Notes: a model not told the origin generated them from the sequence alone. A stretch of DNA of 64,000 nucleotides from Bdellovibrionales bacterium (GCA_965203875.1 OZ241914.1:269209-333208), one strand, 5' to 3'; positions 19,761 to 60,300 are shown, counted from the stretch's first letter. Numbers and translations are program-made.

Positions 19761-19841
19761 AATCCAGCTCGCAAATCTATTAGTTCCGGTATAACTTAAA
19801 CATTTGCTAAAGATTAAATAACTTGGCTATAATAAGTTTTG

Positions 19842-20327
19842 ATGAGTCCATTAAAAAATATAAAAGCAGTAATATTTGATGTAGATGGTACTATGACTGA
19901 TGGGACAATATGGCTGGACAAAGATAATGAATATAAGAGAAGTTTTTATGTGCAAGATGGAGAGGGGATAAAACAATTAATTAATGCAGGTTATACAACT
20001 GGAGTAATAACGGCTGCTGATTCAAATGACATAGATCATAGAATTAAATTTTTAAACATACAGCACTTTTATAAAAAATCTCTGGATAAGCTAAAAGACT
20101 TTTTAAATTTTTTGGAAAAAACAAAATATAAATCAAATGAAGTTTGTTACATAGGGGATGATCTAGCAGATATACCAGTACTAAATAAATGTGGATTTTC
20201 AGTTTGCCCTAAGAACGCTATCAACAAAGTAAAAGAAGTGTCATGCTATATAACCAAAAGTCTAGGGGGAAAAGGTGCAGTTCGTGAATTGTGTGATATT
20301 TTATTAAAATATGGGTATTATAAGTAA
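19842..20327 (+). CDS. kdsC: KDO 8-phosphate phosphatase (HAD family)
   Basis: FDVDGTMTDG, YIGDDLAD and GGKGAVRE motifs. Confidence 0.92.
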   Translation: MSPLKNIKAVIFDVDGTMTDGTIWLDKDNEYKRSFYVQDGEGIKQLINAGYTTGVITAADSNDIDHRIKFLNIQHFYKKSLDKLKDFLNFLEKTKYKSNEVCYIGDDLADIPVLNKCGFSVCPKNAINKVKEVSCYITKSLGGKGAVRELCDILLKYGYYK

Positions 20328-20343
20328 TCCAAAGATAGGTGAA

Positions 20344-21066: not shown

Positions 21067-21178
21067 ACTAGTGTATGAAATTTAAAACTTATTGCTTTGG
21101 ACTAGTATTTAAATTTCATAAACTTATCTCATGATCAGGTCTTTTATTTAACAATAACTATAATAGAATTAAAATAGT

Positions 21179-27511: not shown

Positions 27512-27519
27512 GAAGTGAT

Positions 27520-27771
27520 ATGACTAGATTTTTAATTTTTGTTTTTATAATTTTATTTTCTTTTAATTCTCATGCTCAGAAGAAAAGGAATAAAAGAACA
27601 ACTATAAACTTTGAAGATCAGTTGATCGAGGGCAGTGCTCAAAGCCCTGATCTATTTTTCCTAATGCAAAAAGGAAAATTTGACTTCAAAAAACTTATTA
27701 AACTTAGAGAGAATTTCTTGCCTGAGATGAGAAGATCCACGGAAGAAATAGTAATTAAACGAGGAGAATAG
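27520..27771 (+). CDS. Small exported gliding protein CglF/GltF-like
   Basis: Signal peptide then TTINFEDQLIEG..PD..LIKLRENF. Confidence 0.7.
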   Translation: MTRFLIFVFIILFSFNSHAQKKRNKRTTINFEDQLIEGSAQSPDLFFLMQKGKFDFKKLIKLRENFLPEMRRSTEEIVIKRGE

Positions 27772-27775
27772 TTAA

Positions 27776-30082
27776 GTGAAGCTGGTTTTTATTAGAGTAT
27801 ATAAGGAAGATAAATTATTGTTTGTTAAACAATATCCGTCAACTGACTATATCCTTATAGGGAGTGATCCAGAAGCGTCTCTTAAACTTGATTCTGATAG
27901 TGTTTCATTAGCACATGCAATGATCGAACTTAGAGAAGAAGAATTTTTTATATCTGACTTAGGTGCAGAACAAGGGGTACTTGTAAACGACATCAAAACC
28001 GTAGATCAAGCTATTAAATATGGAGATAATATTCAAGTTGGAGAATTTAGATTGGAATTTTTTGATAAAATTCCAAGGGTAAATAAAGCACCAACTAAAA
28101 AACCTGCTAAAATAAGTGCTCCGGCAAAGACAGCATCTAATGTAGTAGAGACAGATGCAGTAGAAACAGATAATGTTGAATCTGAACAAAAAAAAGCTAA
28201 ACCTAAAAAACCTAAGTCTTTACCTAAGGTTCCTAAAACTCCTAAAGCTCCTCCAAAACTTAAAACCACAGCAGTTAAGCTAAAAAAACCTGTCGCTAGT
28301 CCTGGTAAAGTTAAACCTAGCATAAAACCTCCGCCACCTCCCTCTGCTTTGAATGCAGAACAAACTACAAAAGACTCTACAAAACCTTCTTTAAAAGATA
28401 GAATTAAAGAGAAAACTAAAAAACTAAGAACAAAACCAGCAGCGGCCATAAAAAAGATTATACCTCCTAAGGTAGAAGAATTTCATACTGCTGAAATTAC
28501 CCCAGATGAACAAGTCACTGAAATATCCAAAAATTCTAAAGTAGCGGAAACTCCTGCCAAACCAAGTGTCCCTCCAGCCAAAGTATCAAAGAGTTTTGAT
28601 AATGAAGGTGATAAAATCAATATTAACAACATAAAACCTGGCAAAGGATCCGTTGTTGAGGTGTTAGTAGCATGGGGTAATAGAATAATAGATTCTAATC
28701 ACTTTACTAAAAAATCGGTGACCATAGGATCGAGACAAGGCAATGATATTTTACTTCCTTATGTCGTGGGTGCTGATCATGAGTTATTGAGTATATCACC
28801 TACTCAAACTAAAGTTTTTGTACCTAATGGTATGAATGCATCTGTAATTACTGCTACTAAAAAGTTGAGCTTAGAGCAAATAGAAAAGTCAGGGGGAACA
28901 CTTACTAGTGCAGGTGGTCTGTATGTGATTTTAAAACAAACAGAGATGGTTAAAGTAGAGCTGAGTGATAATATATCATTACTTGTTAGATATGTACCTC
29001 CTACAATTAGACCGTTGATGCTTCCACTGACAGGCCTTTCTGTTCAAGAGCTTACCAATGTGATACTAACAATAGGACTTTCGATTTTGATGTCGTTGTT
29101 TTTTGTTATGTCGGATCAAAAAAATGTAGCAGCAAAAGAAAAAGATCTAGAAGATAAAAAAGAAAGAAAAGCTCTGTTTGTATATAAACCGCCTCCTAGA
29201 CCGCAGACAAGGATTAAGCCACCTCCACCTCCTCCACCTACGACAGTAAAAGTTGTTAAAGTAAAGGAGCAGACTAGAAAACGAAAAATAAAGGCCCCTG
29301 TTAAAAGAAAAGTGGTCAAAAGAGCTGCTAAAAAAGGTAAAGCTAGTGACGCTCCTAGAACAAAAAGCAAATCCAACAAAAAAGTACTAACTGCAAAAAA
29401 TCCAGGTACAGGCAAAGGTATAAGTCGTGGTACAAGTCCCAAAAAAGCTCCAATAGATACACAAAAAGTTGGTCTGTTAGGGTTATTTGCTAAGGGAGGA
29501 ACTCAGAAAAGTTTAAGAAATGCCACTGATGGTTCAGGTGTATCCGCCGCTGCAAAAGGTGCTACAGGCATTGGTTCTAAGAAAGCTGCTGGTTCGGGTA
29601 CAGTTGTTGGTAGTGGATTAAATCAGGTAGGTAAAAGCGGTAAAGGAGAAAGTACGTTTGGAATTGCAGGTGTTAAAACCAGAGGAAGAGGAAGCGGAAA
29701 CAGCGGATATGGAAGCGGAGGAAATCTTGGAGGTAGAGGAGGCACCAACATAGAAGCAGGTGGTGCAGAAGAAGCCTTCGAAGGATCTATTGATAGAGAA
29801 GCAATAAAAAGAGTCGTGCAAAGACATCTAAATCAACTCAGAACTTGTTACAAAAGAGCATTGGATAAGAGGCCAACTGCTCAAGGAAAAGTTGTAATTA
29901 ACTGGACAATTTTATCTGGAGGTAAAGTTGGAAGAGCTAGAACAGTTAGCAACGAAATGAACGATTCAGCTATGTCACGCTGTATGGTATCAAGGTTGCG
30001 TTCATGGCGGTTCCCATCTCCACCAGATGGTCAAGTTGGAGATATTACTTATCCGTTTGTGTTTACACCAGCATCTAACTAA
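27776..30082 (+). CDS. FHA domain plus TM plus TonB-like C-terminal protein (GltG/AgmX/PglI family)
   Basis: N-terminal FHA (VSLAHAMIE..ISDLG..G), Pro/Lys-rich linker, TM, Gly-rich region, C-terminal IKRVV..LRTCY..W.FP..YPFVF. Confidence 0.85.
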   Translation: MKLVFIRVYKEDKLLFVKQYPSTDYILIGSDPEASLKLDSDSVSLAHAMIELREEEFFISDLGAEQGVLVNDIKTVDQAIKYGDNIQVGEFRLEFFDKIPRVNKAPTKKPAKISAPAKTASNVVETDAVETDNVESEQKKAKPKKPKSLPKVPKTPKAPPKLKTTAVKLKKPVASPGKVKPSIKPPPPPSALNAEQTTKDSTKPSLKDRIKEKTKKLRTKPAAAIKKIIPPKVEEFHTAEITPDEQVTEISKNSKVAETPAKPSVPPAKVSKSFDNEGDKININNIKPGKGSVVEVLVAWGNRIIDSNHFTKKSVTIGSRQGNDILLPYVVGADHELLSISPTQTKVFVPNGMNASVITATKKLSLEQIEKSGGTLTSAGGLYVILKQTEMVKVELSDNISLLVRYVPPTIRPLMLPLTGLSVQELTNVILTIGLSILMSLFFVMSDQKNVAAKEKDLEDKKERKALFVYKPPPRPQTRIKPPPPPPPTTVKVVKVKEQTRKRKIKAPVKRKVVKRAAKKGKASDAPRTKSKSNKKVLTAKNPGTGKGISRGTSPKKAPIDTQKVGLLGLFAKGGTQKSLRNATDGSGVSAAAKGATGIGSKKAAGSGTVVGSGLNQVGKSGKGESTFGIAGVKTRGRGSGNSGYGSGGNLGGRGGTNIEAGGAEEAFEGSIDREAIKRVVQRHLNQLRTCYKRALDKRPTAQGKVVINWTILSGGKVGRARTVSNEMNDSAMSRCMVSRLRSWRFPSPPDGQVGDITYPFVFTPASN

Positions 30083-30094
30083 AAGGAGGATATT

Positions 30095-30775
30095 GTGGAA
30101 GAAGAAGTAATGCAGGAAGTGGTAGAGCGAAACTTTATAGCACAGGCATTTATAGATGGCGGAATACCAACAATGACCGCTATTGCTATAGTTGGTGTGC
30201 TAACCGCACTACTTATAGTAGAAAGATTTATGACGCTTAGTAAATTTGGAGTTGATAAGAGAAGCGTAACAGATGGAGTATTTAATGCGATACTTCGTGG
30301 GGACATAGCAACTGCTATTTCGTTTTGCGATTCAAAAATAACTCCGCTTACTGATACTCTTAAGGCTGGGCTTGTTCAGGTTATGAATAAAAGAAATGAC
30401 GAAGAAGTTCAGGTAGCTATGGATGCTGCTGTGTTAAGACATACTCCTAAAGTGGAAGGTTGGACAGGATTTTTGGCTGTCTTTGGTAACGTTGCAACTT
30501 TGGCAGGACTACTTGGAACAATCATAGGTTTGATAAAAGGTTTTGGAGCACTTGCAGAAGTTGATCCAGCAGAAAAAGCAAACATCCTATCTGCAGCAAT
30601 ATCTCACGCACTGAACTGTACAGCATTTGGTTTGATTGTGGCAATACCGGCTATTATTGGATATGGATTTTTCCAAGTTCGTGTTGGAAGACTTCTAAAT
30701 GATATGACCGAAAGCTCTATGAGTTTGATGAATGTAGTAGTTTCTAATAGAGATAAAATCTATAAAGGTAAGTAA
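30095..30775 (+). CDS. MotA/TolQ/ExbB proton channel (AglR-like)
   Basis: ATLAGLLGTIIGLI..F and ALNCTAFGLIVAIP motifs. Confidence 0.92.
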   Translation: MEEEVMQEVVERNFIAQAFIDGGIPTMTAIAIVGVLTALLIVERFMTLSKFGVDKRSVTDGVFNAILRGDIATAISFCDSKITPLTDTLKAGLVQVMNKRNDEEVQVAMDAAVLRHTPKVEGWTGFLAVFGNVATLAGLLGTIIGLIKGFGALAEVDPAEKANILSAAISHALNCTAFGLIVAIPAIIGYGFFQVRVGRLLNDMTESSMSLMNVVVSNRDKIYKGK

Positions 30776-45775: not shown

Positions 45776-47148
45776 TTGGATTTTAGTTTTTCTATTATCT
45801 TAATAACAATATTTGGATTTGCCTTGCCTTTAGTTTTTGACATAACTTTACCTACAAAAAACTCTCTTATTTTAGCATTTCCTTTAAGATATTCTTTCCA
45901 CTGATTGTTATTTTCTTCTATTATATTTTTCACTATGTTTAAGATTTCTGTATCATCAGAAAGTTGTTTTTTTTGTTCAATTAGGTTACCTATATCTGCA
46001 TTATTTAATGAACTTTTTTCCAAAATAAGTTTAGCTGATCGTATAGAAATTTCTTTTTTATCAACACAGTCTATTATTTTTCTTAGTGCTTTAATATTAT
46101 TATAGGTATCATGTTTTTTAGCAATGGTGTATAGATAATCTTTAATCCAATCGATATTGTTGTAGTTTTTAAAAAGTTCTAATGAGTGATCAGCTAAATC
46201 TGGAGTTTTAGCAATTTGAATCGCTTCTGTAGTTGGCATATATTGTGATAGCTTTTTAATTTTATCTATTTGTGGTTCCGGAATATTTATTATTAAATCT
46301 TTTTTTGATAATTCTATAGGAGATAGGTCAGGATCAGGAAAATATTTGTAATCTTCTGAATCTTCTTTTGATCTCATTGATGTAGTTTTATTAGTGGCAC
46401 TGTCGTATAATCTGGTTTCTTGTGTTATCTCACTTTTGAGATCTAATACTTGGTTTTGTCGGGCTATTTCATATTCTAGAGCTTTTTCTATAAATCTAAA
46501 GGAGTTTAAATTTTTAAGTTCAACTTTTGTACCTAGAGGTTCATTTTTTTTTCTCAAGCTAATATTACAATCACATCTCAAAGAGCCTTCTTCTAAATTC
46601 CCGTCAGAGATCCCAATATAAACCACCAAGTCTTTTATTGCTCTTGCGTAGTCAGATGCATGTTTTGGCGATTGAATCTCTGGTTCAGATACTATTTCTA
46701 ACAGAGGGATTCCTGCTCTGTTGAAATTTAATACACTGGATTCTCCTTGGTGTATTAATTTACCTGCATCTTCTTCTATATGTACTCGAGTTATATGTAC
46801 TTTGTTTAAAATGTCATTTGAATAAAATTCTATCGATCCTTTTTCACAAATAGGTTCTTTGTACTGGGATATTTGATAGCCTTTTGGTAAATCTGGATAA
46901 AAATAATTTTTTCTTTCAAATACGGAGCGTGTATTGATCTTACAGTTAAGCATCTTACCTGCTAGTATGGCTTTTTGTACAACGTTATGGTTTATTACTG
47001 GCAAACTTCCGGGAAGTCCTAGACATACTGGGCAGATGTTTTGGTTATCACGATCCCCAAATTTGGTGGAACAATCGCAAAATAATTTTGTAGAGGTGTT
47101 GAGTTGAACATGAATTTCTATACCTATTGTAGGGATGTAAACTGACAT
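45772..47148 (-). CDS. gatB: Asp/Glu-tRNA amidotransferase subunit B
   Basis: IGIEIHVQL, RKNYFYPDLPKGYQISQ and YFPDPDL motifs. Confidence 0.97.
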   Translation of the reverse strand: MSVYIPTIGIEIHVQLNTSTKLFCDCSTKFGDRDNQNICPVCLGLPGSLPVINHNVVQKAILAGKMLNCKINTRSVFERKNYFYPDLPKGYQISQYKEPICEKGSIEFYSNDILNKVHITRVHIEEDAGKLIHQGESSVLNFNRAGIPLLEIVSEPEIQSPKHASDYARAIKDLVVYIGISDGNLEEGSLRCDCNISLRKKNEPLGTKVELKNLNSFRFIEKALEYEIARQNQVLDLKSEITQETRLYDSATNKTTSMRSKEDSEDYKYFPDPDLSPIELSKKDLIINIPEPQIDKIKKLSQYMPTTEAIQIAKTPDLADHSLELFKNYNNIDWIKDYLYTIAKKHDTYNNIKALRKIIDCVDKKEISIRSAKLILEKSSLNNADIGNLIEQKKQLSDDTEILNIVKNIIEENNNQWKEYLKGNAKIREFFVGKVMSKTKGKANPNIVIKIIEKLKSK

Positions 47149-48524
47149 ACGCCCTCTATTGCTTTTGCAACATTAAATAATGTTTGTTCTTTAAACTGTT
47201 TAGCCATCAACTGGATACTTACAGGGAGGTTGTTTTTGGACAACTTTATTGGTAAACTTATGCTAGGAATTCCCGCAAGATTTGCAGGTACTGTGTAATA
47301 GTCATCCCAATACAGCTCTAGTTTATCTTTTATTTCACCATGTTTAAAAGCTAACCCTGATGTTACAGGAGACAATATCACATCACATTTGCTAAAACAT
47401 TTGTCAAAATCATTTTTTATCAGCCGTCTTACTCTGCTAGCTTTTAAATAAAATTCTTCATAATAACCAGAGGACAGAGCTAATGTTCCCATCATAATTC
47501 TAAGCTTAACCTCTTTACCGAATCCGCTGCTTCTTGTTTTTGAAATAAAGTTCATTGTATTATCTTTTCTTAGCCCGAATCTAACCCCATCATAACGGGC
47601 CAAATTGCTAGAAGCTTCGCTAGTGCAAATTAAATAATAAGTTGGAACTGCATACTTTGCATGTTTCAATTCAATATTTACTAAAGAACAGCCTAAATCT
47701 TTTAGGATTTTTTTTGTTTCATCTAAAGAAGATTTTATTTCTTCATGAATGTCTTGATGTTTTAGCACTCCTATGGTCAACCCTTTTAGATCTGTGTTTA
47801 TGTCTTGATCCCAGTTTGGAACAGGGATATTTACGGTGGTGGAATCTTTATGATCGTATCCGCTTATCACTTTAGCCAACAGTGCAGCATCGGTCACATT
47901 ATTTGCTATAGGACCTGCCTGATCCAGGCTGGATGCAAATGCTATCATACCATATCTACTCACTCTACCATAAGTTGGCTTTAATCCTACAACACCGCAG
48001 AAACTTGCAGGTTGCCTGACGGACCCACCTGTATCTGTCCCAATAGATCCATATACCATATCATCAGCTACACTTGCTGCAGAACCGCCACTTGAACCAC
48101 CAGCCGTGTGTTTTTTATTCCAAGGGTTTTTTACTGTACCAAAACAGGAAGTTTCATTATTAGATCCCATAGCAAATTCGTCACAATTATTTTTGCCCAT
48201 AATTATAGCCCCTGCGTTTATCAGTTTATGGATTATTGTTGCAGAATATGGACAAATAAAATTCTTTAATATTTTGGAACATGCGGTGGTAGGCATACCT
48301 TTAACACAAAACATGTCTTTTATGGAAATAGGAACTCCTAGCAGAGGAAGATCTTTCTCGTGGTCTATCTTACCTAACTGTTCTAAAGGATCTTTTGCTA
48401 TATAGACAAAAGAATTTATATCCTTGTCTTGTTTTTTTATTTTTTCTAGTGAACGCTCAACAGCGTGTGCAGAGGGCATACTTTTATTTTTAATAGAATA
48501 TACTAAATTTTTAATAGATCTCAT
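47124..48524 (-). CDS. gatA: Asp/Glu-tRNA amidotransferase subunit A
   Basis: GGSSGGSAA and GTDTGGSVRQPA amidase signature. Confidence 0.97.
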   Translation of the reverse strand: MRSIKNLVYSIKNKSMPSAHAVERSLEKIKKQDKDINSFVYIAKDPLEQLGKIDHEKDLPLLGVPISIKDMFCVKGMPTTACSKILKNFICPYSATIIHKLINAGAIIMGKNNCDEFAMGSNNETSCFGTVKNPWNKKHTAGGSSGGSAASVADDMVYGSIGTDTGGSVRQPASFCGVVGLKPTYGRVSRYGMIAFASSLDQAGPIANNVTDAALLAKVISGYDHKDSTTVNIPVPNWDQDINTDLKGLTIGVLKHQDIHEEIKSSLDETKKILKDLGCSLVNIELKHAKYAVPTYYLICTSEASSNLARYDGVRFGLRKDNTMNFISKTRSSGFGKEVKLRIMMGTLALSSGYYEEFYLKASRVRRLIKNDFDKCFSKCDVILSPVTSGLAFKHGEIKDKLELYWDDYYTVPANLAGIPSISLPIKLSKNNLPVSIQLMAKQFKEQTLFNVAKAIEGVCQFTSLQ

Positions 48525-48784
48525 AATTTAAATGGAACCTTAAAACATCTGCCAATTTTATCTGGAGCATTTTTTAAAAAATCTTCTTTTGTTGTTTGTT
48601 GATTCACTTTATCTTCTCTGTATAGGTTTGTAGGTTCAGTGGGATTAATCAACGGTGTTACTTTTTTAGTATCGACATGCTTTACTTCTTTGAATGCATC
48701 TAATATTGAGACAAGTAAATTTTTGTTTATACGAACGTCCTCTTTGTCAAGTGAACTTAATTTGGCCAATTTTTCTATATCCAT
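48521..48784 (-). CDS. gatC: Asp/Glu-tRNA amidotransferase subunit C
   Basis: LAKLSSL..REDK..LKNAP..FKVP; precedes gatA. Confidence 0.88.
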   Translation of the reverse strand: MDIEKLAKLSSLDKEDVRINKNLLVSILDAFKEVKHVDTKKVTPLINPTEPTNLYREDKVNQQTTKEDFLKNAPDKIGRCFKVPFKL

Positions 48785-48856
48785 AAATGATGTTATACCT
48801 AAACACTTTATAATCTGTAAAGCCTTGTATTTTTGAGATAGGATTGATAGTGTAAT

Positions 48857-50875
48857 TTGGTGAGTTCTTATAAAAATGATATTGACAAACTTGCATCAGA
48901 GATCAATCAGCATGACTATTGTTACTATGCTCTAGACAATCCAACTATAAGTGACCTAGAATACGACAAGAAATATAAAAAGCTTCTAGAGCTTGAAAAA
49001 AAACATAATTACACACCAGCCAATTCTCCCACCCAGAGGGTAAGCGGTGTAGTCTCTAAAAGATTTGGCAAAAGCTCTCATACAGAGCCTATGTTGTCTA
49101 TTCAAAACTGTTTTTTGGATGAGGAACTTGTGGCATTTGATTCCAGGGTAAGAAAATTTTTGTCCACAGAGCTTGCAGGTCAAAATTTAGAATATTTTTG
49201 TCAGCCTAAATTAGACGGTTTAGCTATGGAACTTGTGTATGAGAATGGCAAACTGACCAAGGCTATAACTAGAGGGGACGGTTATACAGGCGAAAATGTA
49301 ACAGAAAATATAAAAACAATAAAGTGCATACCGCTATACATTGCAGATGCCCCCAATCTTTTGGAAGTTAGAGGTGAGGTTATCATGAAGAAAAATGATT
49401 TTAGATCTCTTAACAAAATACAAGAAGCAGAAGAGGGTATAGTTTTTTCCACACCTAGAAATGCAGCAGCTGGTTCTGTAAGACAGCTCAATTCTGCTAT
49501 AACAGCTCAAAGAAAATTATTTTTTTATGCATATGCTTGTGGGTCAGTAAAAGGAGTACAATTTGAAACTCACAAAGATATGGAAGAGCGTCTAAGGACT
49601 CTAGGTATACCTATATTACCTGTCAGAAAATCTTTAAAAACTAAAGCAGCGGATAATCACCTATCTTTTTTAGCAAATTCGCTTGATGAGGTGATACAAT
49701 ATAGAAATTTTATTTATAACATAAAGCCAAGTTTGGATTTTGATGTCGATGGTGTGGTGATAAAAGTAAACAGAATAAATTGGCAAAGAAAAATTGGAAT
49801 GACTGCAAAATATCCTAGATGGGTATGTGCTGCTAAATTTAAAGCAGAAGAAGCTAAAACAAGAATTTTAGATATTAAAGTACAAGTTGGCAGAACTGGG
49901 GTACTGACCCCAGTAGCTATACTGGAACCTGTAAGAGTGGCAGGAGTGTTAATAACTTATGCTTCCTTACATAATCAAGATGAAATAGATAGAAAAGATA
50001 TCAGAATATCGGATACAGTGAATGTTCAAAGGGCGGGTGATGTAATACCTTATATTACAGGCGTTGAGTTTTCCAAAAGAAAAAAAGGTGCAGCCAAATA
50101 TACTATTCCAGATAAATGCCCTTCTTGTAATAAGAAGGCTGACAAGTCAGAAACTTTAATTAGATGTAAAAATTCAAATTGTGGATCTCAACTTAAACAA
50201 AAGTTAAAACATTTTGTATCTAGAAGAGCTATGAATATTGATCAGCTAGGAGATAAACTTGTAGAAAAATTATCAGATGCTAATTTGGTTAAAAATTACT
50301 CCGACTTTTATAAATTAAAAGAAGAGCATATTTTAGGTCTTGAGGGTTATAAAGATAAATCTGCTAACAATATAATTTCTAGCATACAAAAAACAAAAAA
50401 ACAGAGGATGGATAAATTTATATATGCTCTAGGTATACGGCATGTTGGAGAGAACACTGCAAAACTAATAGCTAAACACTTTAAAAGCATAGATAAATTT
50501 TTATCTGCTAAAGAAGAAGATTTTTCTAAAATAGATGGGTTAGGTGATAGGACAAGTCATACCATAGCTCAATATTTGTCAGGTTCAGGCATGGAAGAGA
50601 TCAAAAAATTAATGAAAGTACTAGAATTATCATATGAAAATTATAATGAGCAAAATAAAACTGTTGTTTTAACTGGTAGATTAAGTTTGCCAAAACATCA
50701 AATAAAAGAAATTTTAGAGGCTAAAGGGTTTAATGTGTTAAATTCAGTTTCCAAGAATACTGATTTTGTTTTATATGGCGAGAAGGCCGGCACCAAGTTA
50801 GATACAGCAAAACGGCTTGGCATTCAAATAATAGATGAATCTACCATAGATTGGAATGACTTTAATGACTTTTAA
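48857..50875 (+). CDS. ligA: NAD-dependent DNA ligase
   Basis: PKLDG (KxDG), EVRGEV, DGVVIK, VGRTG, Zn finger and C-terminal BRCT. Confidence 0.97.
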   Translation: MVSSYKNDIDKLASEINQHDYCYYALDNPTISDLEYDKKYKKLLELEKKHNYTPANSPTQRVSGVVSKRFGKSSHTEPMLSIQNCFLDEELVAFDSRVRKFLSTELAGQNLEYFCQPKLDGLAMELVYENGKLTKAITRGDGYTGENVTENIKTIKCIPLYIADAPNLLEVRGEVIMKKNDFRSLNKIQEAEEGIVFSTPRNAAAGSVRQLNSAITAQRKLFFYAYACGSVKGVQFETHKDMEERLRTLGIPILPVRKSLKTKAADNHLSFLANSLDEVIQYRNFIYNIKPSLDFDVDGVVIKVNRINWQRKIGMTAKYPRWVCAAKFKAEEAKTRILDIKVQVGRTGVLTPVAILEPVRVAGVLITYASLHNQDEIDRKDIRISDTVNVQRAGDVIPYITGVEFSKRKKGAAKYTIPDKCPSCNKKADKSETLIRCKNSNCGSQLKQKLKHFVSRRAMNIDQLGDKLVEKLSDANLVKNYSDFYKLKEEHILGLEGYKDKSANNIISSIQKTKKQRMDKFIYALGIRHVGENTAKLIAKHFKSIDKFLSAKEEDFSKIDGLGDRTSHTIAQYLSGSGMEEIKKLMKVLELSYENYNEQNKTVVLTGRLSLPKHQIKEILEAKGFNVLNSVSKNTDFVLYGEKAGTKLDTAKRLGIQIIDESTIDWNDFNDF

Positions 50876-51326
50876 AGTATGCCGTTAGCCTAGCTTCAGA
50901 TACTTTTGATCCATCTTCTTTGCAAATATTAGTTTCAAAGATATATACTCTGTCTGATCTAATTTTTACAACTTTGGCCTCTATATTTAATATATCTCCA
51001 GGTACTACAGGAGCTCTAAATTTTGCCTTATCAACACCGGTTATCAAAGTAGAGTTGTTTGAGTTGGGCTTTAATACCAAAATTGCTGCTGCTTGAGCCA
51101 TTGCTTCTATTTGTAAAACACCTGGCATTATCGGATTGTTTGGGAAATGTCCTACAAAGAATGGTTCATTGATAGTTATATTTTTTCTTGCGATTAAATA
51201 TGCATTTTCCCAATTTTTTAAATCTTCAGATCTTACTCTTTTTAATACACTGTCTATAAGTAAAAATGGGTATCTATGAGGTAATATGTCCAATATTTCT
51301 TTTATTGATAGTTTATCTTCTATCAT
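50862..51326 (-). CDS. fabZ: 3-hydroxyacyl-ACP dehydratase
   Basis: LPHRYPFLLID and GHFP..PIMPGVLQIEAMAQ motifs. Confidence 0.95.
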   Translation of the reverse strand: MIEDKLSIKEILDILPHRYPFLLIDSVLKRVRSEDLKNWENAYLIARKNITINEPFFVGHFPNNPIMPGVLQIEAMAQAAAILVLKPNSNNSTLITGVDKAKFRAPVVPGDILNIEAKVVKIRSDRVYIFETNICKEDGSKVSEARLTAYFKSH

Positions 51327-51823
51327 TTTTTACCATCTATCTTTTTTATAACCTCTTGAGTTAAATCTAAAGAAGATTTTCCCCATAGAACGGATACTTC
51401 ATTTTTTTGTAAAATAAGATCATATCCTTTTTTGGTTCCAATTTCATTTGCAATGTTTAGAATTCTGTCTAGGATTGGTTTAGTCAGTTCTTGCTCTCTT
51501 TTTTGAATGTTCATTTGACTCTGAGCCAATTTATTCTGTAAGGCTACAAATTTTCTTTGAAGTGCAGCTTGTTGTTGCATAAAGATATCTCTTGATAAAA
51601 CAGTTTCCTTTCGTTTTAAATCTTCGCTTTCTTTTTTTAAACTAGCCTCTTCTTTTTTAATGTCGTCTTTTACTTTTTTTATCTCTTTTTCCAATTTATT
51701 TTTTGCTGCAATACCAGCTTTAGTAGTTTGTAAGGCTTTTGCTACGTCTACAAAACCTACCTTCATTTCTGCTTCAGATGATGAAATAAGTACCGTAGAT
51801 AACAATGTAAGTAATATATGCAT
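51323..51823 (-). CDS. skp: Periplasmic chaperone Skp/OmpH
   Basis: KVGFVD, coiled coil, DLTQEVI; follows bamA. Confidence 0.9.
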   Translation of the reverse strand: MHILLTLLSTVLISSSEAEMKVGFVDVAKALQTTKAGIAAKNKLEKEIKKVKDDIKKEEASLKKESEDLKRKETVLSRDIFMQQQAALQRKFVALQNKLAQSQMNIQKREQELTKPILDRILNIANEIGTKKGYDLILQKNEVSVLWGKSSLDLTQEVIKKIDGKK

Positions 51824-51844
51824 TTTTCCTCCAAAAAAATAACT

Positions 51845-54145
51845 TTAAAACGGGGTTCCCATGGAAAATTGAAACTGAGAGCTATCTTCACCTTGTCTTC
51901 TATCTACAGGAAAGCCCCACTCAAATCTCAAAGGTCCCATTGGAGAGAACCACCTCAAACCTAGTCCAAAATTAGATCTTAAATTTTCTAGTTTCAATTT
52001 GTCCTCTGCCATTCCTATATCGTAAAATATCACGCCAAAAATACCGTTAGAATCTACCATAGGAAATTGTAATTCAATATTATAAAACATCTGGCTTGTT
52101 CCACCTCCAACAATGTCTTCATATTCTCTGGTGCTTTCATTTTCTTCCTCACCTTCATTTTCTTCAGTATCTCTCCTAACAACTCTTTTAACAGTCTTTC
52201 CTATACCAAACCATTCAAATCCACGCAATGTATTTGATCCACCTAGCCTGTATAATTCATTAAAAGGAATTCTTTCATTATTAAACGGGAGCAAATTAGA
52301 GTAAGTTAAATTATTTCTTAAAATCAATCTTCTCCATACAGGTTTATAAAATCTTACATTGAAAGAATGCTCTGTATATTTTTTATCACCGCCTAAACCT
52401 ACGTACTTTAGCGATGCACTAGCAAATAACCCATCGCTGGGCATCCATCTGTCGTTTCGTTTGTCGTACTCAAAGGATAAAGTTACGGAGCTAGAGATAC
52501 CTTCCGCTTCTTCTTCATCGTTAGCATCAAAAAGAGAATCTTTTAATATTTCAATTCCTACATCTTCATATGAATATTTTATAAAACTATGAAAATATTT
52601 AGTTAATGGATGCCCGAGTCTTAATGCTCCTCCGGTTCTAAAATCTTTGTACTGATCTTGTATTCTGTATTCTGTTTTATAAAGTTCTAGTCCAGATGAC
52701 AATTTGGTGTCTAATAGATATGGTTCTGTAAAGTTTAAAGAAAAAATAGTTTCCAATTCAGAAGCATTTGCGTTGAGTGAAAAACTTTGTCCTTTTCCAA
52801 ATAAATTTGTTTTCCCAACCATACCAGAAAATATTAATTTGGAAGATGATCCATAACCTCCTGTTACTTGTAAACTTCCTGTTTTTCTCTCTTCTACTAC
52901 CAAGTCGTAATTCACTACACTTGGGTTTTCTGGATCTATTTTCTGTTGAAAATTTACGTCACTAAAAAAACCTAATCTTTTGATATCTTCTAGCGATCTG
53001 CGTTTATTTGTTTCGTTATACAGCTCACCTTCCAATATACTCATCTCTCTTCTTATTACTTTATCCCTGGTGCTTTGATTGCCTACAATATTAAATTGAC
53101 CAAAATGAACTTTTTCTCCTTTATCAATAGCAAAATCTATATCAATCAAATTGTTTTCGTTATCTACATTAGTTCCAGGTATGATGTTTACAAATGCATA
53201 TCCAAGGTCACCATACATCGCCTGTAAACTACTAAGATCGTTCTGTAAAACATTATAAGCAAATATTTTTCCTGACTCTGTTTTTATCCTTTCTGTGAAT
53301 TGATCTATTGTGAATAATAAATCTCCACTGAAATTTATTTGTCCAACAGTGTGTTGGACCCCTTCTTCAATTTGCATGTTTATCATAATATCTTTTTTAT
53401 TAGGAGAGATAAAAATTTGATAATCTTTTACACTAGCTTCAATAAACCCCTCATTATAATATAAATATTTTATTGCCTGAATATCTCTTTCAAAAGCGGC
53501 TTTACTATAAAGTCCACCTCCTGAAATAATGCTAAAGAAAGTTTTTTCTTTAGTAAGCATATTTGATTTTATTATTTCATCAGTGATGGAATTATTTCCT
53601 AGGATATTTATCTTTTTTACTTTTACTTTTTTATTTTCACTTATTTTAAAAATTAATTCTACCGAATCTTTATCTTGTTCTTTTATCTCGTACAATATAT
53701 TGGCTAGGAAAAATCCTTTAGATTCGTATAATTCTAGCATGTTGCTTATTGCATCGTTTACTTTGGATATATCCAAAAACTCGTCTTTACTAAGCTCGGA
53801 TATCTCAAACAGCTCATCTGAATCTATTTTCTTATTGCCTTCAAAAATTATCTCGGATACGGAAGGTTTTTCTACCACCACATACCTCAGTACACCTGGT
53901 GCTTTGTGAATTTCTATGTCATAAAAATGACCCATTTCAAAGATTTTTTTTAGGTCGTCTGTAACTTTGTTTTTTGAATAAAGCTTGCCTACTTCATTCG
54001 TAATTTTAGAGCGTATTGCTTCTTCACCTATTTTTTTATTGCCTTCAATTTTAATATCTTTAATGATTTCTGCATGACAGACAGTATGCCCTACATAAGA
54101 TAGAGTAAAAAATATTATGAAAAGATACTTCTTGGACGTGAGCAT
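51845..54145 (-). CDS. bamA: Outer-membrane protein assembly factor BamA
   Basis: POTRA repeats, GGSNTLRGF, GLRWFSPMGPLRF and C-terminal FQFSMGTPF. Confidence 0.96.
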   Translation of the reverse strand: MLTSKKYLFIIFFTLSYVGHTVCHAEIIKDIKIEGNKKIGEEAIRSKITNEVGKLYSKNKVTDDLKKIFEMGHFYDIEIHKAPGVLRYVVVEKPSVSEIIFEGNKKIDSDELFEISELSKDEFLDISKVNDAISNMLELYESKGFFLANILYEIKEQDKDSVELIFKISENKKVKVKKINILGNNSITDEIIKSNMLTKEKTFFSIISGGGLYSKAAFERDIQAIKYLYYNEGFIEASVKDYQIFISPNKKDIMINMQIEEGVQHTVGQINFSGDLLFTIDQFTERIKTESGKIFAYNVLQNDLSSLQAMYGDLGYAFVNIIPGTNVDNENNLIDIDFAIDKGEKVHFGQFNIVGNQSTRDKVIRREMSILEGELYNETNKRRSLEDIKRLGFFSDVNFQQKIDPENPSVVNYDLVVEERKTGSLQVTGGYGSSSKLIFSGMVGKTNLFGKGQSFSLNANASELETIFSLNFTEPYLLDTKLSSGLELYKTEYRIQDQYKDFRTGGALRLGHPLTKYFHSFIKYSYEDVGIEILKDSLFDANDEEEAEGISSSVTLSFEYDKRNDRWMPSDGLFASASLKYVGLGGDKKYTEHSFNVRFYKPVWRRLILRNNLTYSNLLPFNNERIPFNELYRLGGSNTLRGFEWFGIGKTVKRVVRRDTEENEGEEENESTREYEDIVGGGTSQMFYNIELQFPMVDSNGIFGVIFYDIGMAEDKLKLENLRSNFGLGLRWFSPMGPLRFEWGFPVDRRQGEDSSQFQFSMGTPF

Positions 54146-54177
54146 TTGGGTACACCTAGCACAAGTTTATATAACAA

Positions 54178-54846
54178 TCAAACTAACCATTGACCATCTT
54201 TCATATTTAATACTCTAGGGAACATTTTGGAAAACCCTATGTCATGAGTGACAACTACCAGAGTTATCCCCCTTTTTTGATTTAGCTCCAATAGCATATT
54301 TTTTATGATTTCTTCATTTTTGCTATCTAAATTACCTGTAGGTTCATCTGAGAACAGAATATCGGGGTTTTGCATTAAGGCTCTGGCTATGGCTACCCTT
54401 TGTTGTTCACCTCCACTTAGTTCTTTGGGTAAGTGGTTGCTTCTGTGTGCTAGTTTTAAGTTTTCTAAAAGTTCCATTGCTCGTTGTTTGCTTTCAGGTT
54501 GTCTTGCAATTTGTGCAGGTAGCATCACATTTTCAAGAGCTGTAAATTCTTTTAATAAATGGTATGCTTGAAAAACAAATCCCATGGTTTTGTTTCTGAA
54601 CATTGCTAATTTTTCAGATTTATAGTCGTACACATCCTGGCCGTTGTATAGTACTTGTCCGCTGGTTGGTTTATCCAATGTTCCCAGAATATGTAGGAGC
54701 GTACTTTTTCCTGCACCTGAAGATCCCATTATACATAGCGCTTCTGTTTTATTAACTTTTAGGCATATTTCATGTAATACACGAACAGTTTTAACGTTTG
54801 TGGTATAAGTTTTAGAAATATCGATGGCTTCTATTAGAGGTGTCAT
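54178..54846 (-). CDS. lolD: Lipoprotein-releasing ABC transporter ATPase
   Basis: [23 protein letters not shown] and DEPTGNLD motifs. Confidence 0.9.
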
Positions 54847-56042
54847 GTGCTACGAAAGCCTTCCACTGGGTTTAAATTTGCACCTTTTAGAGCGGGTAAT
54901 ATAGTCGATATGAAGCATATAAGCAAGGTTGATATAATTATTATCCCAATATCAAAAAATTCTATTTTTACTGGTAAATAACTGAATTGGTAGACGTCTG
55001 CCGGCACTTCTATTATTTTTAGATTTTTTATAACCAAGCATGAAATTAGGCCTAAAATCGTGCCAATTACTGAGCCTATTATGCCAATTATGAGGCCTTG
55101 GCTTATAAAAAGTTTTACCAGAAAATTTTCTGAAGCTCCTAAGGTTTTTAGGATACTGATATCATAAAATCGTTTGATAACGTAGATGAACAAAGTGCTA
55201 CATACATTAAAGCATGCAACCAGTATGATAAATGATAGTATTACAAATATTGCCCATTTTTCTAATTCTAAAGAGGAGAAAAAGTTATAGTTCATGTCAA
55301 ACCAGTTTTGCATATGATATTCGTAGCCTAATTTTTCTATTAATTTATTTTCCAGTCCAATCGCAGTTTTGGCATCATTTAAAAGAAGTTTTATTCCTGA
55401 ATAGACTCCGCCTAGTCCTAGAATATTTTGTGCAGCTTTGTCTTCAATAAATATGAGACGTTCGTTGTAGTCATATTTTCCTAAGTCTAATATTCCTGCT
55501 AGGTAAAAATTTCTGGATTGAGGGGCAAATGATCCTTCTAGTACGCTGTTACCTGTTCTAGGGACAACAACTTGGAATGTATCGCCTACTTCGAGGTTTA
55601 GTTTTTTTGATAGTACGTTGCCTATCATTGCTGCGTCCATATTATTTTTTTTGAAGGCGAATTGTCCGGAAGTCACTCTGTTATCTAGGTTTAGAGTTTT
55701 AGAGTAGGTGTTTTTGTTTAATCCATTTATTAGTACACCGCCTATGTCGCCTTTATTAATTGCCAAGGCTTCCATGGTTATAAATGGACTAATTTGGTCT
55801 AATGTAGGTACTTCTTTTTTGATTATTTGTTCTTCTCTAGGAGTTATGTTGCCGTAGATGATGAAATGTCCGTTGATATCTATCACGGATTTTTTGATAA
55901 CTTGTTCAACTCCGTTCATAATAGACATTGCTAGTATTAAGCAAGCTACTCCTACTATGATGCCTAAGGTTCCGAATAGCGAGGTCCACGTGACAAATTT
56001 TCCTCCGCCTTTTAGGTATTTTATTACCATTTTAAAATACAT
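54843..56042 (-). CDS. Lipoprotein-releasing ABC transporter permease LolC/E
   Basis: FtsX-type permease pattern (SIMNG, EK..FVILSFIILVACFN, ILKTLGA, NPVEG); adjacent to lolD. Confidence 0.9.
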   Translation of the reverse strand: MYFKMVIKYLKGGGKFVTWTSLFGTLGIIVGVACLILAMSIMNGVEQVIKKSVIDINGHFIIYGNITPREEQIIKKEVPTLDQISPFITMEALAINKGDIGGVLINGLNKNTYSKTLNLDNRVTSGQFAFKKNNMDAAMIGNVLSKKLNLEVGDTFQVVVPRTGNSVLEGSFAPQSRNFYLAGILDLGKYDYNERLIFIEDKAAQNILGLGGVYSGIKLLLNDAKTAIGLENKLIEKLGYEYHMQNWFDMNYNFFSSLELEKWAIFVILSFIILVACFNVCSTLFIYVIKRFYDISILKTLGASENFLVKLFISQGLIIGIIGSVIGTILGLISCLVIKNLKIIEVPADVYQFSYLPVKIEFFDIGIIIISTLLICFISTILPALKGANLNPVEGFRST

Positions 56043-56045
56043 ATT

Positions 56046-56515
56046 TAAGGTCCTTCGTTTTTGAATTAAAGGTCTTCAATTTTTAATAAGTGTACATGAC
56101 GAATCAATAAGGCCGCAGGTCAAGCGAAGTTATGTACACTTTTAAAAATGTTTACCAGCTCTCAAGGTAAACTCCAAAAGATTATCTAAAGGTCTTTAAA
56201 TTTTGTCAAAGATTAGCGAAGCGGTAAGGCATACAGTTTAAAGCGTAGCTATGAAAACATTTGGTAAAACTTTAGGGCTTTAAGACAATCTGTCGTAGTT
56301 TACCTTGAACGTTGGTTAACATTTTATCAAATAATAGCTTAGCACCCAAGCCCTTCAATTCTTATCAAAGCTAGCGAAGTGGTTAGACCGCAGGTCAAAC
56401 GAAGCTAGGTTTTGATAAGAATGTTGTGCACCATTCAAGGTAAACTACGAAAACTTTTCTCGACCTTTGGTCTTACCACTACGCTAGCTATTATTTGATA
56501 AAATTAAAAAGCTTT
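56046..56515. repeat. Cluster of hairpin-repeat copies: C0 end fragment 56046-56061, C1 56068-56175, C2 56188-56280, C3 ~56293-56515 (minus strand, interrupted), C4 56348-56450 (nested in C3)
   Basis: Same AAGG(T/C)CTTCAATT left end, G(A/G)CC-GCA-GGTC core and TTCAAGGTAAACT right end as copies A and B; the outer stems are self-complementary. Confidence 0.85.
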
Positions 56516-56921
56516 AGTGTCTCAATGTGATAATTTATATGTGTGTGAGGGGTATTTTTCTGGACTTAGTTTTGTTTTTCTTTGTGAAAAGGGTTTTTTG
56601 TCGTAGAATTTAGAGTTTGGTAAGTTTGGTTTTAAGTTTTAGGTTTTTATTTTGTTTTTTTTAAGATCTTTATTTATTCGTTTTAAAAATACTTTTCTTT
56701 TAAAGGGCCGGCTGAAAGCCGGCAGATTGATTGGGCCGAAGGTTGGTTTTTATAAAGCTCCGCAGTCGCAAGTTAATTTTTTGTTTAAGAGGCTGGCCGA
56801 AGGCCAGCAAACTGATCCAACCGTAGGTAAGCCAGCAAATGCGTCCAGTCGCCATGGATGGTTCAAAAGCTTATGTGAATCACGAAAAACTTGGTTACTC
56901 CGAAGTTCTGCAGCCGTTAGG

Positions 56922-57230
56922 TTGCAAAAGCTTCCAACCGCAGGTTGTGGATTTACGATGTTGGAGACATTGATAGGATTGGCGTTGGTATCAGCTACAG
57001 GTTTTGTGGTTACGTTTATGACGGCTAACATGACGACTTTAACTCAGAGGAAGCATGATACTTATATGTGTTCATCTGTAGCTGGTAATGTATTGGCTCA
57101 TTTTTCTAAGAATGGCAGTAAGGTTTCTCCTAAGAAAGAAGTAGCTACTATATCTACTGTTTCTACTACCTCTACTACCCAAAATTTGGGGGGGGGGGGG
57201 CGACCAAAATTTAAGCAAGATTGGTCATAA
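56922..57230 (+). CDS. Type IV prepilin-like N-terminal segment, out of frame with the downstream ORF at a poly-G tract
   Basis: Prepilin motif G|FTMLETLIGLALVS plus hydrophobic helix. TTG start at 56922 is inferred. Confidence 0.7.
   Translation: MQKLPTAGCGFTMLETLIGLALVSATGFVVTFMTANMTTLTQRKHDTYMCSSVAGNVLAHFSKNGSKVSPKKEVATISTVSTTSTTQNLGGGGRPKFKQDWS
57188..57200 (+). repeat. G13 homopolymer, candidate contingency locus
   Basis: Thirteen consecutive G at the frame switch between the two ORFs in an AT-rich genome. Confidence 0.85.
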
Positions 57231-57318
57231 TACTTCTGTAGATTCTCCATTAAGTGCTTCATCTAGTGGAGTTACTTTACATTTAGATAGGTTATATGAT
57301 GGTTCAGATGTTGGAGTT

Positions 57319-60300
57319 TTGGAGGACTTGTATAATAAGTATTTAAAGACATCTTCTACTAATCCTATTTCTATATGTCCATCAGATGCTCAAATTAGTA
57401 ACAGTTCAGCTTTGACTTTTGATCTAGTGAAGATGGAGTTTAAGTCTCATGAGTCTTCTGCTCCTTTGATAAAGTTAGGTGATTTAGACAAGTGGGTTGA
57501 AGAGAATCCTAATAAATATCGTAAGCTTAAGGATGAAGATAAACGGACAGCTCATCAAGGGCTAGCAGACAACAATGGTTCATCTTCAGATGGATATAAG
57601 TGGGATAGGTTGACCGGAGAGTCGTTATTTTTGTTAAGTGAGCGTTTATCTGATATATCGTCCTTATCCTTTGGTCCAGTTGAGCCTGTGAGTAGTTATA
57701 CTCCTGTAAGTAATTACATAGCTAAGTCTAAGTATGATGTTCGTATTGGTATAAGGCCTTGGGATATAAGCAAGAATGAGAAGACAGATAGTTGTAACAG
57801 GCATAAGAGTAAGGCTATACATCCTATTTTTGTTCGTCCTCGTTCTGTTTATGATAAACCTGAGAATTCAGATAAGAGTAAGTTAGGTTATAAGCTTGCT
57901 TCTAGTTTATCAGGTTTGCCTGAGGCTAATATTCGTCATGATCTTGGATTTAAGTTATTTGTGGAGGTTGAGGAGAGGAAGGCAGTATCTAGTTATGATC
58001 CTATCAGATGCAGAGCTGAGAAGGTATTTTCTTATTCTCAGAGGTATGTAACAGCACGCAATAAGACAATAGTAAAGACTACTTCAGTTACTACTACGAC
58101 CCCACCTGTTAGTAGTTTTCAAGCTAATTTAGCTAGTAACAAAAATAACAACAAGTTAGTTAGTAGCAAAGCTAATAACAACAAGTTAGTTAGTAACAAC
58201 TTAGTTAGTAATCTGGCTAATAAAGCTAATAGTAAGCATAATCCATCTACAATATCTCTATCTTCTGTGTCTAATTCTGAGGCTGATTCTTCAGACAGTT
58301 CATCAACTTCAACAACGACCACTACCCTTCAATGTACTACAAATTCTGATAATTCTACGACATGTAGGTTTAAGCTAGAAGGTCGTGTGTGGGATAGGGG
58401 TTATAGGTGTCCAGATGGTAATGATGATAATGATGAAGGATATTGTTTAAATTCCAGTTTTAGTAAGGGAGTATTTTTATGTCGTTTGAACAAAAAGATT
58501 AGTGGTATAGATTATCCAGTTGGAGATTGGTTTTTATGTGATGATTTATCTGGTAGCTCCTTTACTATTGGTGATGATACACATCCTGTGACTGCCCAGC
58601 TATATGCGAGTGATCCTAGTGATCCTGAAGATGGCGATCGTAGTAAAGATAAGGAGTTACATTTAAGATTTACTGAGTTGCCTGCACCTGATTCTAGTAT
58701 TGAGTATAGTATAGAGCTCAGGTTAGTGGATGAGTATGGTAACTACTCTCCATCGCCTCAAGAAGATGCACTTATTTTCTCTACGACTACTACAACGGAT
58801 CCATGTGCTGGGGTAACATGCACTGGCATTCAGAGGTGTAATAGTGCTACTGGCCGTTGTGAATGTCCAGCTAATCATGCTAGTTGTCGTAATAATGCTA
58901 TTTGCTGTGATCCTGGTAGTATTTGCGTAAATAATGGTTGTGCTTGTGATGATACTGCTTGTGGGCTTCTTGGAAAAGTTTGTGTAAATGGCCATTGTGT
59001 AAATCAACAAACCCAGCAAACCTGTGAGCAAAAGAGAGGTGTGGATAATTGTAAAACATGTGTTGGCGTAAGTACTCATGGAAATCCTGTAACTAAAACA
59101 TGTCCTTCAAGTCAGACTTTAAATACCAACACTTGTGTTTGTGAAGCTAGTGGTTGTACACCTGCAAGCTGTCCTTCTGGATGGGGCACAGATGCACCTT
59201 GTAGTGGTGGGAGTTCACAGCAAGTTACTGGAGGATGTAATGATACAATAACTTGCTATCGTGGAGGTACTGTATGTTCTAGCCCTACTCCTTATTGTAG
59301 TAGTGGAAGTTGTGTACGATGTACTGATGACTGGCACTGTTCTGGTAGGAAGGTTTGTGAGAATAATAGTTGTGTAGATCCTCCTCCTGCTTGCAATAAG
59401 AGTTGTTCTAATTGTTCAGGTGCATGTGATAGTTGTGATACATGTACAGGAACATGTACTAAATGTCTACCAAACTACACTTGCAACACAAGCACAAGAA
59501 GGTGTGAGCGTGATGATCCATGTGATGGTGTAACCATAACCTGTGGTTCTGGAAGTATGCGTGGTTATCCACACGGTTTACGACAAACTTGTAACTCTGA
59601 TCCAAGAACAGAATGCGGAACAACTTGCTATAGTGGAAGTGGTTCTACCTGCACCGCAAATGATTGTTATAAGTGTCGTGGTGGTCAGTGTGGTTCACGT
59701 GTGAAGAAAACATCAAGTGAAGTATCTTGTCCAAGTACTCATCCAAATACTTCACAACAAACTTGTAATAGTCGTTCAACCAGAGTATGTGGTGTAAAAA
59801 CATGCTGGAATGGAAGCGGTCCTACCTGCATCCCAAATGATTGTTATAAGTGTCGTGGTGGTCAGTGTGGTTCACGTGTAGCTAAAACAGCAAGTGAAGT
59901 ATCTTGTCCAAGTACTCATCCATATACTTCAAAACAAACTTGTAAGAGTACTAAAAAAACACCGCTAGTATGTGGTGTAAAAACATGCTGGAATGGAAGT
60001 GGTCCTACCTGCATCCCAAATGATTGTTATAAGTGTAATCCTGATCAATGCGGTACACGTGTAGCTAAAACAGCAAGTGAAGTATCTTGTCCAGCTTCTC
60101 ATCCACATACTTCACAACAAACTTGTAATAGTCGTTCAACCAGAGTATGTGGTGTAAAAACCTGTTGGGATGGAGAAAATTGCTCTGAAGGTTATAGCTG
60201 TAACAGCAATGGTGACTGTGAGGAGGATGACGACTCAGACTCCTGTGATGATGCTGATTGTGCCAAATTGGATAGTACATGTGGTGGAAGCTGCGGTACG

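Follow-up and report, generated by a model that had tools for sequence, protein, structure and literature searches.

An undescribed family of mobile-looking hairpin repeats piled up beside a lolE-like gene in an uncultured marine relative of Bdellovibrionales

The intergenic pile-up and its surroundings

The window (the whole stretch of 64,000 nt that was analysed) contains a 1.27-kb spacer bordered on one side by a lolE-like permease gene (54843-56042, minus strand) and on the other by a prepilin-type gene and a 1057-aa ORF (plus strand). The left 470 nt of this spacer consist of copies of one repeat family, and we regard this C1-C4 region, with moderate confidence, as a pile-up of lineage-specific, small, non-coding and non-autonomous repeat elements. 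The host is an uncultured marine bacterium from a poorly sampled lineage related to Bdellovibrionales. The sole taxonomic hint comes from one Bdellovibrionales MAG that has 76% of LolE residues in common and contains neither the elements nor the synteny, and a search for relatives with the neighbouring iPGM protein as a query returned none closer than 51%. The window adjoins the replication origin, with dnaA-dnaN and a 951-bp spacer beside yidC located ~6-8 kb left of position 1 (L062 16913-20501), and GC skew is positive across its first 31 kb (1-31 kb).

Each unit is 115-130 nt long and comprises three parts, a left end (LE), one long hairpin, and a conserved tail. In total, the window holds nine copies or fragments of the family in three clusters. 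They are given below with the features next to them; bit scores are those of the covariance model described in the next section, and z is the fold z.

1157-1167, minus strand: X, solo LE AAGGTCTTCAA, an exact 11-nt repeat of the LE of B (1404-1414)
1168-1293, minus strand: A, complete (123 bits, z -3.1)
1294-1415, minus strand: B, complete, first of the head-to-tail array B-A-X (z -4.9)
19600-19725, plus strand: D, complete element of 126 nt with AAGCCCT on both sides (125 bits)
19726-19752, plus strand: E, LE and left-arm fragment AAGCCCTAAAGTTTTTAATAAGTGTA, the sequence remaining at the empty site
56050-56060, plus strand: solo LE-like motif AAGGTCCTTCG; the divergent lolE-like gene has its start codon 8 nt away, and the reverse complement of the motif includes GAAGGA, 9 nt upstream of the ATG at 56042
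56068-56187, plus strand: C1, complete, with LE AAAGGTCTTCAA, an 18-bp outer stem, inner hairpin and tail (120.4 bits; DNA fold -17.7 kcal/mol, z -4.8)
56181-56209, minus strand: promoter-like TTGACA-17-GATAAT (11/12), a consensus match only, facing the lolE-like gene
56188-56281, plus strand: C2, decayed hybrid copy, with no fold (z -0.14) and no covariance model match
56282-56346, minus strand: 3' half of C3, with tail (56282-56321), right arm (56322-56339) and loop remnant TAGCACC (partial match at 56280-56387, 45 bits)
56347-56461, plus strand: C4, complete, inserted inverted into the 3' internal loop of C3 (119.5 bits over 56345-56463, z -3.0)
56462-56515, minus strand: 5' half of C3, with LE AAAGCTTTTTAA (56504-56515), left arm (56486-56503) and 5' loop, its apical hairpin being GACCAAAGGTC (56462-56472) (partial match at 56400-56517, 48.5 bits)
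56516-58900, plus strand: neighbouring segment of ~2.4 kb, present in ~4-5 copies per genome (word depth 128-142 vs 25-32)

The neighbouring segment comprises an upstream non-coding region, the prepilin-type gene, and the 5' part of the 1057-aa ORF, with paralogous proteins P0002-P0011. It begins exactly at the LE of C3 and represents the context of the elements rather than a part of them. In the first cluster, two exact copies of AAGGTCTTCAA (1157-1167 and 1404-1414) bracket the B-A array. They lie just inside two outward-facing GCCGATC motifs (1118-1140 and 1425-1445), each with TTTAAC ~16 nt upstream, and these pairs resemble sigma-28 -10 boxes for two divergent genes.

Anatomy and folding of the unit

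The LE reads AAAGSYCTTCRA and has a palindromic core, AAG-NN-CTT. The hairpin has three stems: an outer one of 12-18 bp that is rich in AT, an inner one, TAGC/GCTA, and an apical one, GRCC-NNN-GGYC. The tail, TGTTGYGCAACGTTCAAGGTAGACTMCAAACAGATTGTCT, is 35-42 nt long and non-palindromic, and its proximal part is the best conserved segment of the unit (75%). Where a tail meets the next LE, the joint reads CTT-AAG. Both LE and tail are unstructured, and each unit has one central hairpin. Terminal inverted repeats are rejected: the local alignment of the LE with the reverse complement of the tail scores at the shuffled mean in 13/13 copies, i.e., the two ends are not complementary. A covariance model built from six copies found none in the window beyond those listed above, and 12 or more further copies in two additional loci, L120 (sister strain) and L121 (third assembly), both reached through paralogues of the 1057-aa protein. 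In short-read contigs, tail k-mers occur at ~40x single-copy depth.

The fold itself is conserved. In a MAFFT alignment of 13 full copies, analysed with a 24-pair structure, 88% of the cells are paired and 17/24 pairs exhibit compensatory double changes, a count reached by 0/500 shuffles, and pairing falls to 27-50% when the partners are slid. Together, covariation and controls indicate that folding is maintained while the sequence drifts. The hairpins are probably selected for folding alone; alternatively, the covariation could reflect selection on an RNA. Intact copies have a fold z of -3 to -4.9. The mismatches show an excess of G.T (14) over A.C (5), a weak hint that the strand as written is the folding strand. 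Regarding orientation, the top strand is the lagging-strand template for 12/16 copies on the replichore of the window, which is a weak bias since it amounts to only 5/6 when counted by cluster.

No match was returned for the window by Rfam 15 at gathering scores, and a permissive Rfam search of 55900-57400 reports only chance-level microRNA models. Scanning 185,579 reference genomes and JGI metagenome contigs with the signature GTTGNNCAACGTTCAAGRTR yields single chance matches with dissimilar flanks, suggesting that the family is restricted to this lineage or that the lineage is absent from those collections. The literature on repeats in Halobacteriovorax, Bacteriovorax and Bdellovibrio, and on the tail sequence, provides nothing relevant. 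The hairpin repeats are an undescribed, recently active and mobile-looking family, new as a family but of a familiar kind, and do not represent a new kind of biology.

Nested, hybrid and polymorphic copies

A preliminary description had proposed that the arms of C3 are split by a complete copy of opposite strand, and this holds. The arms, 56321-56339 (ATTTTATCAAATAATAGCT) and 56486-56504, are complementary at 19/19 positions, whereas ~2e-4 such 19-bp repeats within 200 nt are expected by chance anywhere in the window. Between them lies a complete plus-strand C4, with its own arms (56358-56369 and 56411-56422) complementary at 12/12 positions and a covariance model score equal to that of uninterrupted copies. 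The limits first given for C4 (56348-56450) are slightly too narrow: the best ones are 56347 (or 56344) to 56455-56461, with a core at 56347-56455, and residues 56456-56461 can be read either as the end of the C4 tail or as C3 loop. The two halves of C3 do belong together, as C3 aligns at full length with the family once C4 is removed, and C3-like loops that are uninterrupted occur in other genomic copies (TAGC-TTCGCTTTG-GACC). C4 is inserted, inverted, 8-12 nt past the apical stem of C3 in the 3' internal loop. Its flanks do not form a clean duplicated LE, CAAGCCCTTCAA and AAAACTTTTCTC having 7/12 positions in common. The perfect 17-bp inverted repeat formed by 56293-56309 and 56434-56450 (17/17) is likewise real; it is the conserved tail TTCAAGGTAAACTACG of two opposed copies rather than a separate feature, and as an additional sign of mobility it says nothing beyond the presence of two copies in opposite orientation.

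A second, independent nest lies at another locus of the sister strain (L120 8763-9005). There, a complete inner unit (8823-8947) starts 6 nt past the outer apical stem, and the right arm and tail of the outer unit follow. The position in the loop is the same as in the C3/C4 nest, while the relative orientation is opposite.

Nested repeats of a multi-copy family may arise by collapse or chimerism during assembly, and the short-read data leave room for this reading: Logan contigs break at every element, and 56342-56530 is uncovered at >=99% in every run, so that the junctions are neither confirmed nor contradicted. However, Logan contigs also show such a gap in the loop of copy D, a copy with an otherwise supported junction, and the gap is therefore read as the loss of single-copy stretches between 40-fold repeats and not as absence. 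More directly, the independent assembly of a sister strain (ENA ERZ25067941 contig_1), 99.1% identical over 12.7 kb, has the C1-C2-C3[C4] copies in identical order and orientation with identical junctions. Over the C1-C4 region it differs from the window by two SNPs only, 56104 T>G and 56339 T>C, the latter breaking the perfect 19-bp repeat. Gene calling on this assembly splits dnaB into three pieces and ftsK into four (L120 297-4435). Such fragmentation suggests long-read-type indel errors, and the assembly is hence treated as technically independent. An origin of the nest in assembly is thus extremely improbable, given that a ~1% diverged strain reproduces the architecture and that another nest, built in the same way, is found at a different locus; the comparison of the two sequences indicates that the C3/C4 nest is not a misassembly. 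Since it is fixed in both strains, it represents a past event.

C2 does carry a left end at both termini, as had been proposed: AAAGGTCTTTAA at 56188-56199 and the reverse complement of AAAGCCCTAAAG at 56270-56281. The second one is the 15/15 reverse complement, over 56266-56280, of the LE of E (19726-19740), and it is directly adjoined by the tail of C3. From left to right, C2 comprises an LE, a shortened B-type left arm, and the inner region and right arm of the B subfamily, with the inverted LE standing where a tail would be; matches to both arms of copy B are found at 56247-56269 and 56255-56269. Since the two arms of a hairpin form inverted repeats, a plus copy's right arm and the left arm of a minus member of its subfamily read as direct repeats on one strand. 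If we assume a tail-to-tail pair of B-subfamily copies, loss of the DNA between the right arm of C2 and the left arm of the inverted copy would leave LE-arm-loop-arm-inverted LE, which matches C2. We infer that C2 is probably such a secondary deletion between inverted copies, a recombination product rather than a transposition intermediate. The proposal that nesting and end-swapping reflect insertion or recombination is supported, except that C2 fits this deletion better than end-swapping driven by a transposase.

A recent change is seen at D. The sister strain lacks exactly the 126 nt of this copy: CATA-AAGCCCT-TCG...CTCC-AAGCCCT-AAAG is the sequence of the filled site in the window, and CATA-AAGCCCT-AAAG that of the empty one. 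The 6.3 kb around the indel are 100% identical, the nearest SNPs being at 17072 and 23397, and a stretch of 13 kb has a single SNP, pointing to a recent event. A location of D at a strain recombination breakpoint is rejected, as divergence resumes only 3.7 kb away. The flanking 7-nt repeat, AAGCCCT, is part of the conserved LE motif of the neighbouring fragment, and may hence stem from homology rather than from duplication. The empty joint is present in the short reads of the sister lineage, to which X4 belongs, sharing its SNPs with L060. Three runs of one sample (S1), the sample that matches the window, contain the empty joint as well as the D-to-E junction, and this mixture of alleles could correspond to two strains rather than to ongoing movement. 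As the two strain lineages compared leave the change unpolarised, the polymorphism could be a precise deletion instead of a new insertion, and the absence of D could also result from slippage between the 7-nt repeats on either side of its strong hairpin, a deletion requiring no transposase.

Divergence from the sister strain is patchy along the window, with 0-1 SNP over 13 kb (10185-23397) and then 1.5-5% in blocks, one of which (23.4-27.5 kb) is located inside the gene of a 1272-aa TPR protein. This patchiness (window 23397-30500 and 47000-56900 vs L061/L060) is the pattern expected from inter-strain recombination.

The arrays have a recurrent design. All five junctions in the window are seamless, the tail running into the next LE (B-A-X, D-E, C1-C2, C3-C2'), and the loose ends of other genomic copies mostly read tail then LE. 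In some cases a tail ends in TTTTGT and a 5'-truncated unit comes next instead of an LE, which indicates that the LE-targeting rule is not absolute. Most units, solo ones among them, have the LE core on either side (L120 15911-16035, followed by AAAGCTCTAAAA, and L121 9729-9858, followed by AAAGACCTTAC). In 4/5 copies that lead an array, the 5' flank ends in TA, but no clear motif is apparent. Neighbours within arrays come from different subfamilies and are hence not local duplications, and the sets of elements in front of three paralogous copies of the 2.4-kb segment all differ. Moreover, unrelated hairpin bodies are enclosed by the same LE and tail (L120 8437-8555 and 18843-18945), and L121 contains longer composite units; unrelated bodies between common ends are the pattern of elements where only the ends matter. 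L120 8437-8640 and 18843-19052 contain the same composite, in which a type II hairpin unit leads straight into a C1-like unit truncated at its 5' end, and such composite forms seem to be propagated as units.

The presence or absence of D, the second nest, and the shared ends on unrelated bodies support the earlier suggestion that the elements are mobile rather than purely regulatory. The converse, that they are structured regulatory or architectural modules (e.g., transcript-stabilising or -processing RNA hairpins, or protein-binding sites) spread only by ordinary recombination or duplication, is very unlikely. The strong covariation, which points to selection for folding, would suit such modules, and REP/BIME elements bind gyrase and other proteins (PMC2817692). 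The window also places 3/3 clusters in divergent promoter regions, next to start codons, and a near-consensus promoter, the TTGACA-17-GATAAT site, is made by the left arm of C2 together with the C1/C2 junction. However, a confinement to divergent promoter regions is rejected: it is true for the three clusters of the window, but in L120 and L121 the elements also lie in co-directional and convergent spacers, so the pattern seen in the window is attributed to chance. A role as shared sigma-70 promoters or terminators is rejected as well, as scans of the elements stay at background level except for the one junction-made site. Varied spacers, the lack of a shared signal, and a promoter made at a junction indicate that effects on genes are likely incidental. 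Further arguments against regulatory modules are the lack of an Rfam match, array neighbours of different subfamilies, a unit that comes and goes in identical flanks, and elements located inside one another in both orientations.

Candidate modes of movement and known repeat systems

Taken as a whole, the observations are probably best explained, again with moderate confidence, by non-autonomous hairpin repeats that are moved in trans and joined at the LE core, C2 being a secondary deletion. The units would be mobilised by an enzyme encoded elsewhere in the genome, which would recognise the two asymmetric ends and the folded hairpin as single-stranded or extruded DNA. Joining or cutting at the LE core would confer a preference for LE-like AAG/CTT sites next to or inside resident copies, and insertion at the LE-like sites of these copies would build arrays and nests. 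Any influence on genes nearby, for instance through a possible lolE promoter, would be a by-product. No transposase or recombinase gene was found in ~175 kb of the window and related loci, and this counts against movement in trans as well as against both enzyme types considered below.

In its behaviour the family is like REP/BIME, BOX and long-hairpin MITEs, yet it fails the defining tests of each. REPs are imperfect palindromes, 20-35 nt long and carrying a GT(A/G)G head; neighbouring repeats within a BIME have alternating orientations, and the elements are thought to be non-autonomous and moved in trans (PMC2817692). The elements of the window resemble them in being abundant, short, non-coding, hairpin-forming and only intergenic, in forming clustered mosaics with other small motifs, and in having no DDE-type terminal inverted repeats. 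In contrast, their units are of 115-130 nt, with the LE AAAGSYCTTCRA instead of the GT(A/G)G head and a 35-42-nt tail; B-A-X, D-E, C1-C2 and all L120/L121 arrays are head-to-tail, only C3 being inverted; and a 7-nt direct repeat flanks the polymorphic D. A rayt gene flanked by two inverted repeats was sought in ~175 kb across two genomes, and none was detected.

One candidate type of enzyme is a single-strand-DNA HUH/Y1 protein (IS200/IS605-type TnpA or RAYT-like), which would attach to the hairpin folded on the lagging-strand template and cleave at adjacent short motifs. Mobilisation of this type has been proposed for REP/BIME elements (PMC2817692), and the absent terminal inverted repeats, the hairpin kept by compensatory change, the insertions into loops of other hairpins, the excess of G.T mismatches (14 vs A.C 5) as a hint at one folding strand, and the 12/16 copies with the top strand on the lagging-strand template agree with it. 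We nevertheless consider it rather unlikely. Besides the REP-like head and the alternating orientation that the family does not exhibit, its units contain one central hairpin and not a subterminal hairpin at each end, which also sets them apart from IS200/IS605-derived miniatures; the orientation bias is weak by cluster (5/6), and the HUH/Y1 family makes no direct repeat such as the 7 nt around D.

The second type of enzyme would act by conservative site-specific recombination via a circle, with a DEDD IS110/IS492-like enzyme or a tyrosine recombinase and the LE core as the crossover. Integration at an LE-like site would leave a unit bracketed by hybrid LEs, and excision would be precise. Elements of the IS110 family are devoid of terminal inverted repeats, insert into hairpin or REP sequences as their targets, and are excised with precision. 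IS110, IS1111 and IS492 are autonomous, span 1.2-1.5 kb, and encode a DEDD recombinase and a guide RNA. The family has in common with them asymmetric ends with no terminal inverted repeats, short direct repeats at junctions, precise loss, and hairpin or REP-like targets; but as its units are non-coding, ~120 nt long, and have no recombinase gene within, the analogy is one of junction behaviour only. A circle would account for the single AAGCCCT copy left by the precise absence of D, for the LE-like motif on both sides of nearly every unit, including the solo ones of L120 and L121 mentioned above, and for the exact 11-nt repeat around array B-A, and a palindromic core would permit either orientation, as seen when C4 is compared with the L120 nest. 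On the other hand, the two motifs flanking C4 agree at 7/12 positions only, tails ending in TTTTGT lack a following LE, and slippage explains the same D junction. We thus hold this reading, too, to be rather improbable.

It is decidedly unlikely that the family reveals an undescribed mode of movement, in which small circles or single strands would be handled by a site-specific recombinase with its crossover at the AAG-NN-CTT / CTT-AAG joint and be guided by structure to the loops and ends of resident copies. If true, the elements would be self-targeting pure-hairpin cassettes that assemble mosaics before a paralogous pilin/adhesin gene family.

Other systems offer partial parallels to the favoured non-autonomous repeats moved in trans. 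The BOX elements of Streptococcus pneumoniae are intergenic, consist of dissimilar conserved end modules, boxA and boxC, around a variable middle of repeated boxB units, and are predicted to form stable stem-loops. Like BOX, the family is modular and intergenic, with conserved dissimilar ends, a variable middle, folding, and no known mobilising enzyme. Unlike BOX, with which it has no sequence similarity, its middle is a single long hairpin or one of the alternative hairpin types rather than boxB repeats, and nested and tandem self-targeted insertions are prominent. In the Correia elements of Neisseria, ERIC/IRU of enterobacteria, and RUP, the hairpin arises from conserved terminal inverted repeats, and target duplications are fixed ones such as TA. 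Such long-hairpin MITEs are 100-160 nt long and strain-variable, sometimes donate promoters, and occasionally have internal insertions. The size, one long hairpin, the non-coding and multi-copy character, and the strain-variable presence are all found here; however, the termini are not complementary, and the stem is located inside the conserved ends and drifts by compensatory change. Lastly, the length range, the folded single-strand hairpin, the conserved structure with variable sequence, and the arrays of units are reminiscent of integron attC sites, but the ends are not complementary RYYYAAC/GTTRRRY boxes and no cassette ORFs lie between units. The window contains no integrase, and its element clusters are scattered among housekeeping genes.

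Asymmetric ends with no inverted termini, together with a palindromic LE core recurring at junctions, are unusual among intergenic hairpin repeats. The family provides clean material on movement, with one unit that is polymorphic between identical flanks, two nests sharing a loop position, and seamless arrays. In practice, the repeats break short-read assemblies, every Logan contig ending there, and mark differences between strains. If the enzyme is found, it could show how hairpin repeats spread with no linked transposase, a question that is open for BOX, ERIC, and many REP-like families.

The 2.4-kb segment, whose word depth is 4-5x that of flanking DNA in three runs, is one of several paralogous cassettes comprising a prepilin-type gene, a ~1000-aa protein with no Pfam match, and an M12B-like metallopeptidase; six or more of these paralogues are located in the same 1.6-Mb contig. 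Upstream of its GFTMLE prepilin motif, 56700-56950 contains small GC-rich hairpins with GNRA-type loops (GCCGGC-TGAAA-GCCGGC, CTGGCC-GAAG-GCCAG, CCAACC-GTAG-GT...). Similar GC-rich modules occur among the hairpin elements at L121 22400-22520 and may be a further module type of the mosaic system. The 96 nt just upstream of the prepilin motif (56852-56949) are replaced by AAGACTGGG in the sister strain and in the contigs of 4/4 runs, and 56707-56760 is also replaced in the sister strain. Within the 1057-aa ORF, 59567-60174 consists of three to four tandem repeats of 177-183 nt that are 74-86% identical. This region is rearranged in the sister strain, where the protein comprises 985 aa.
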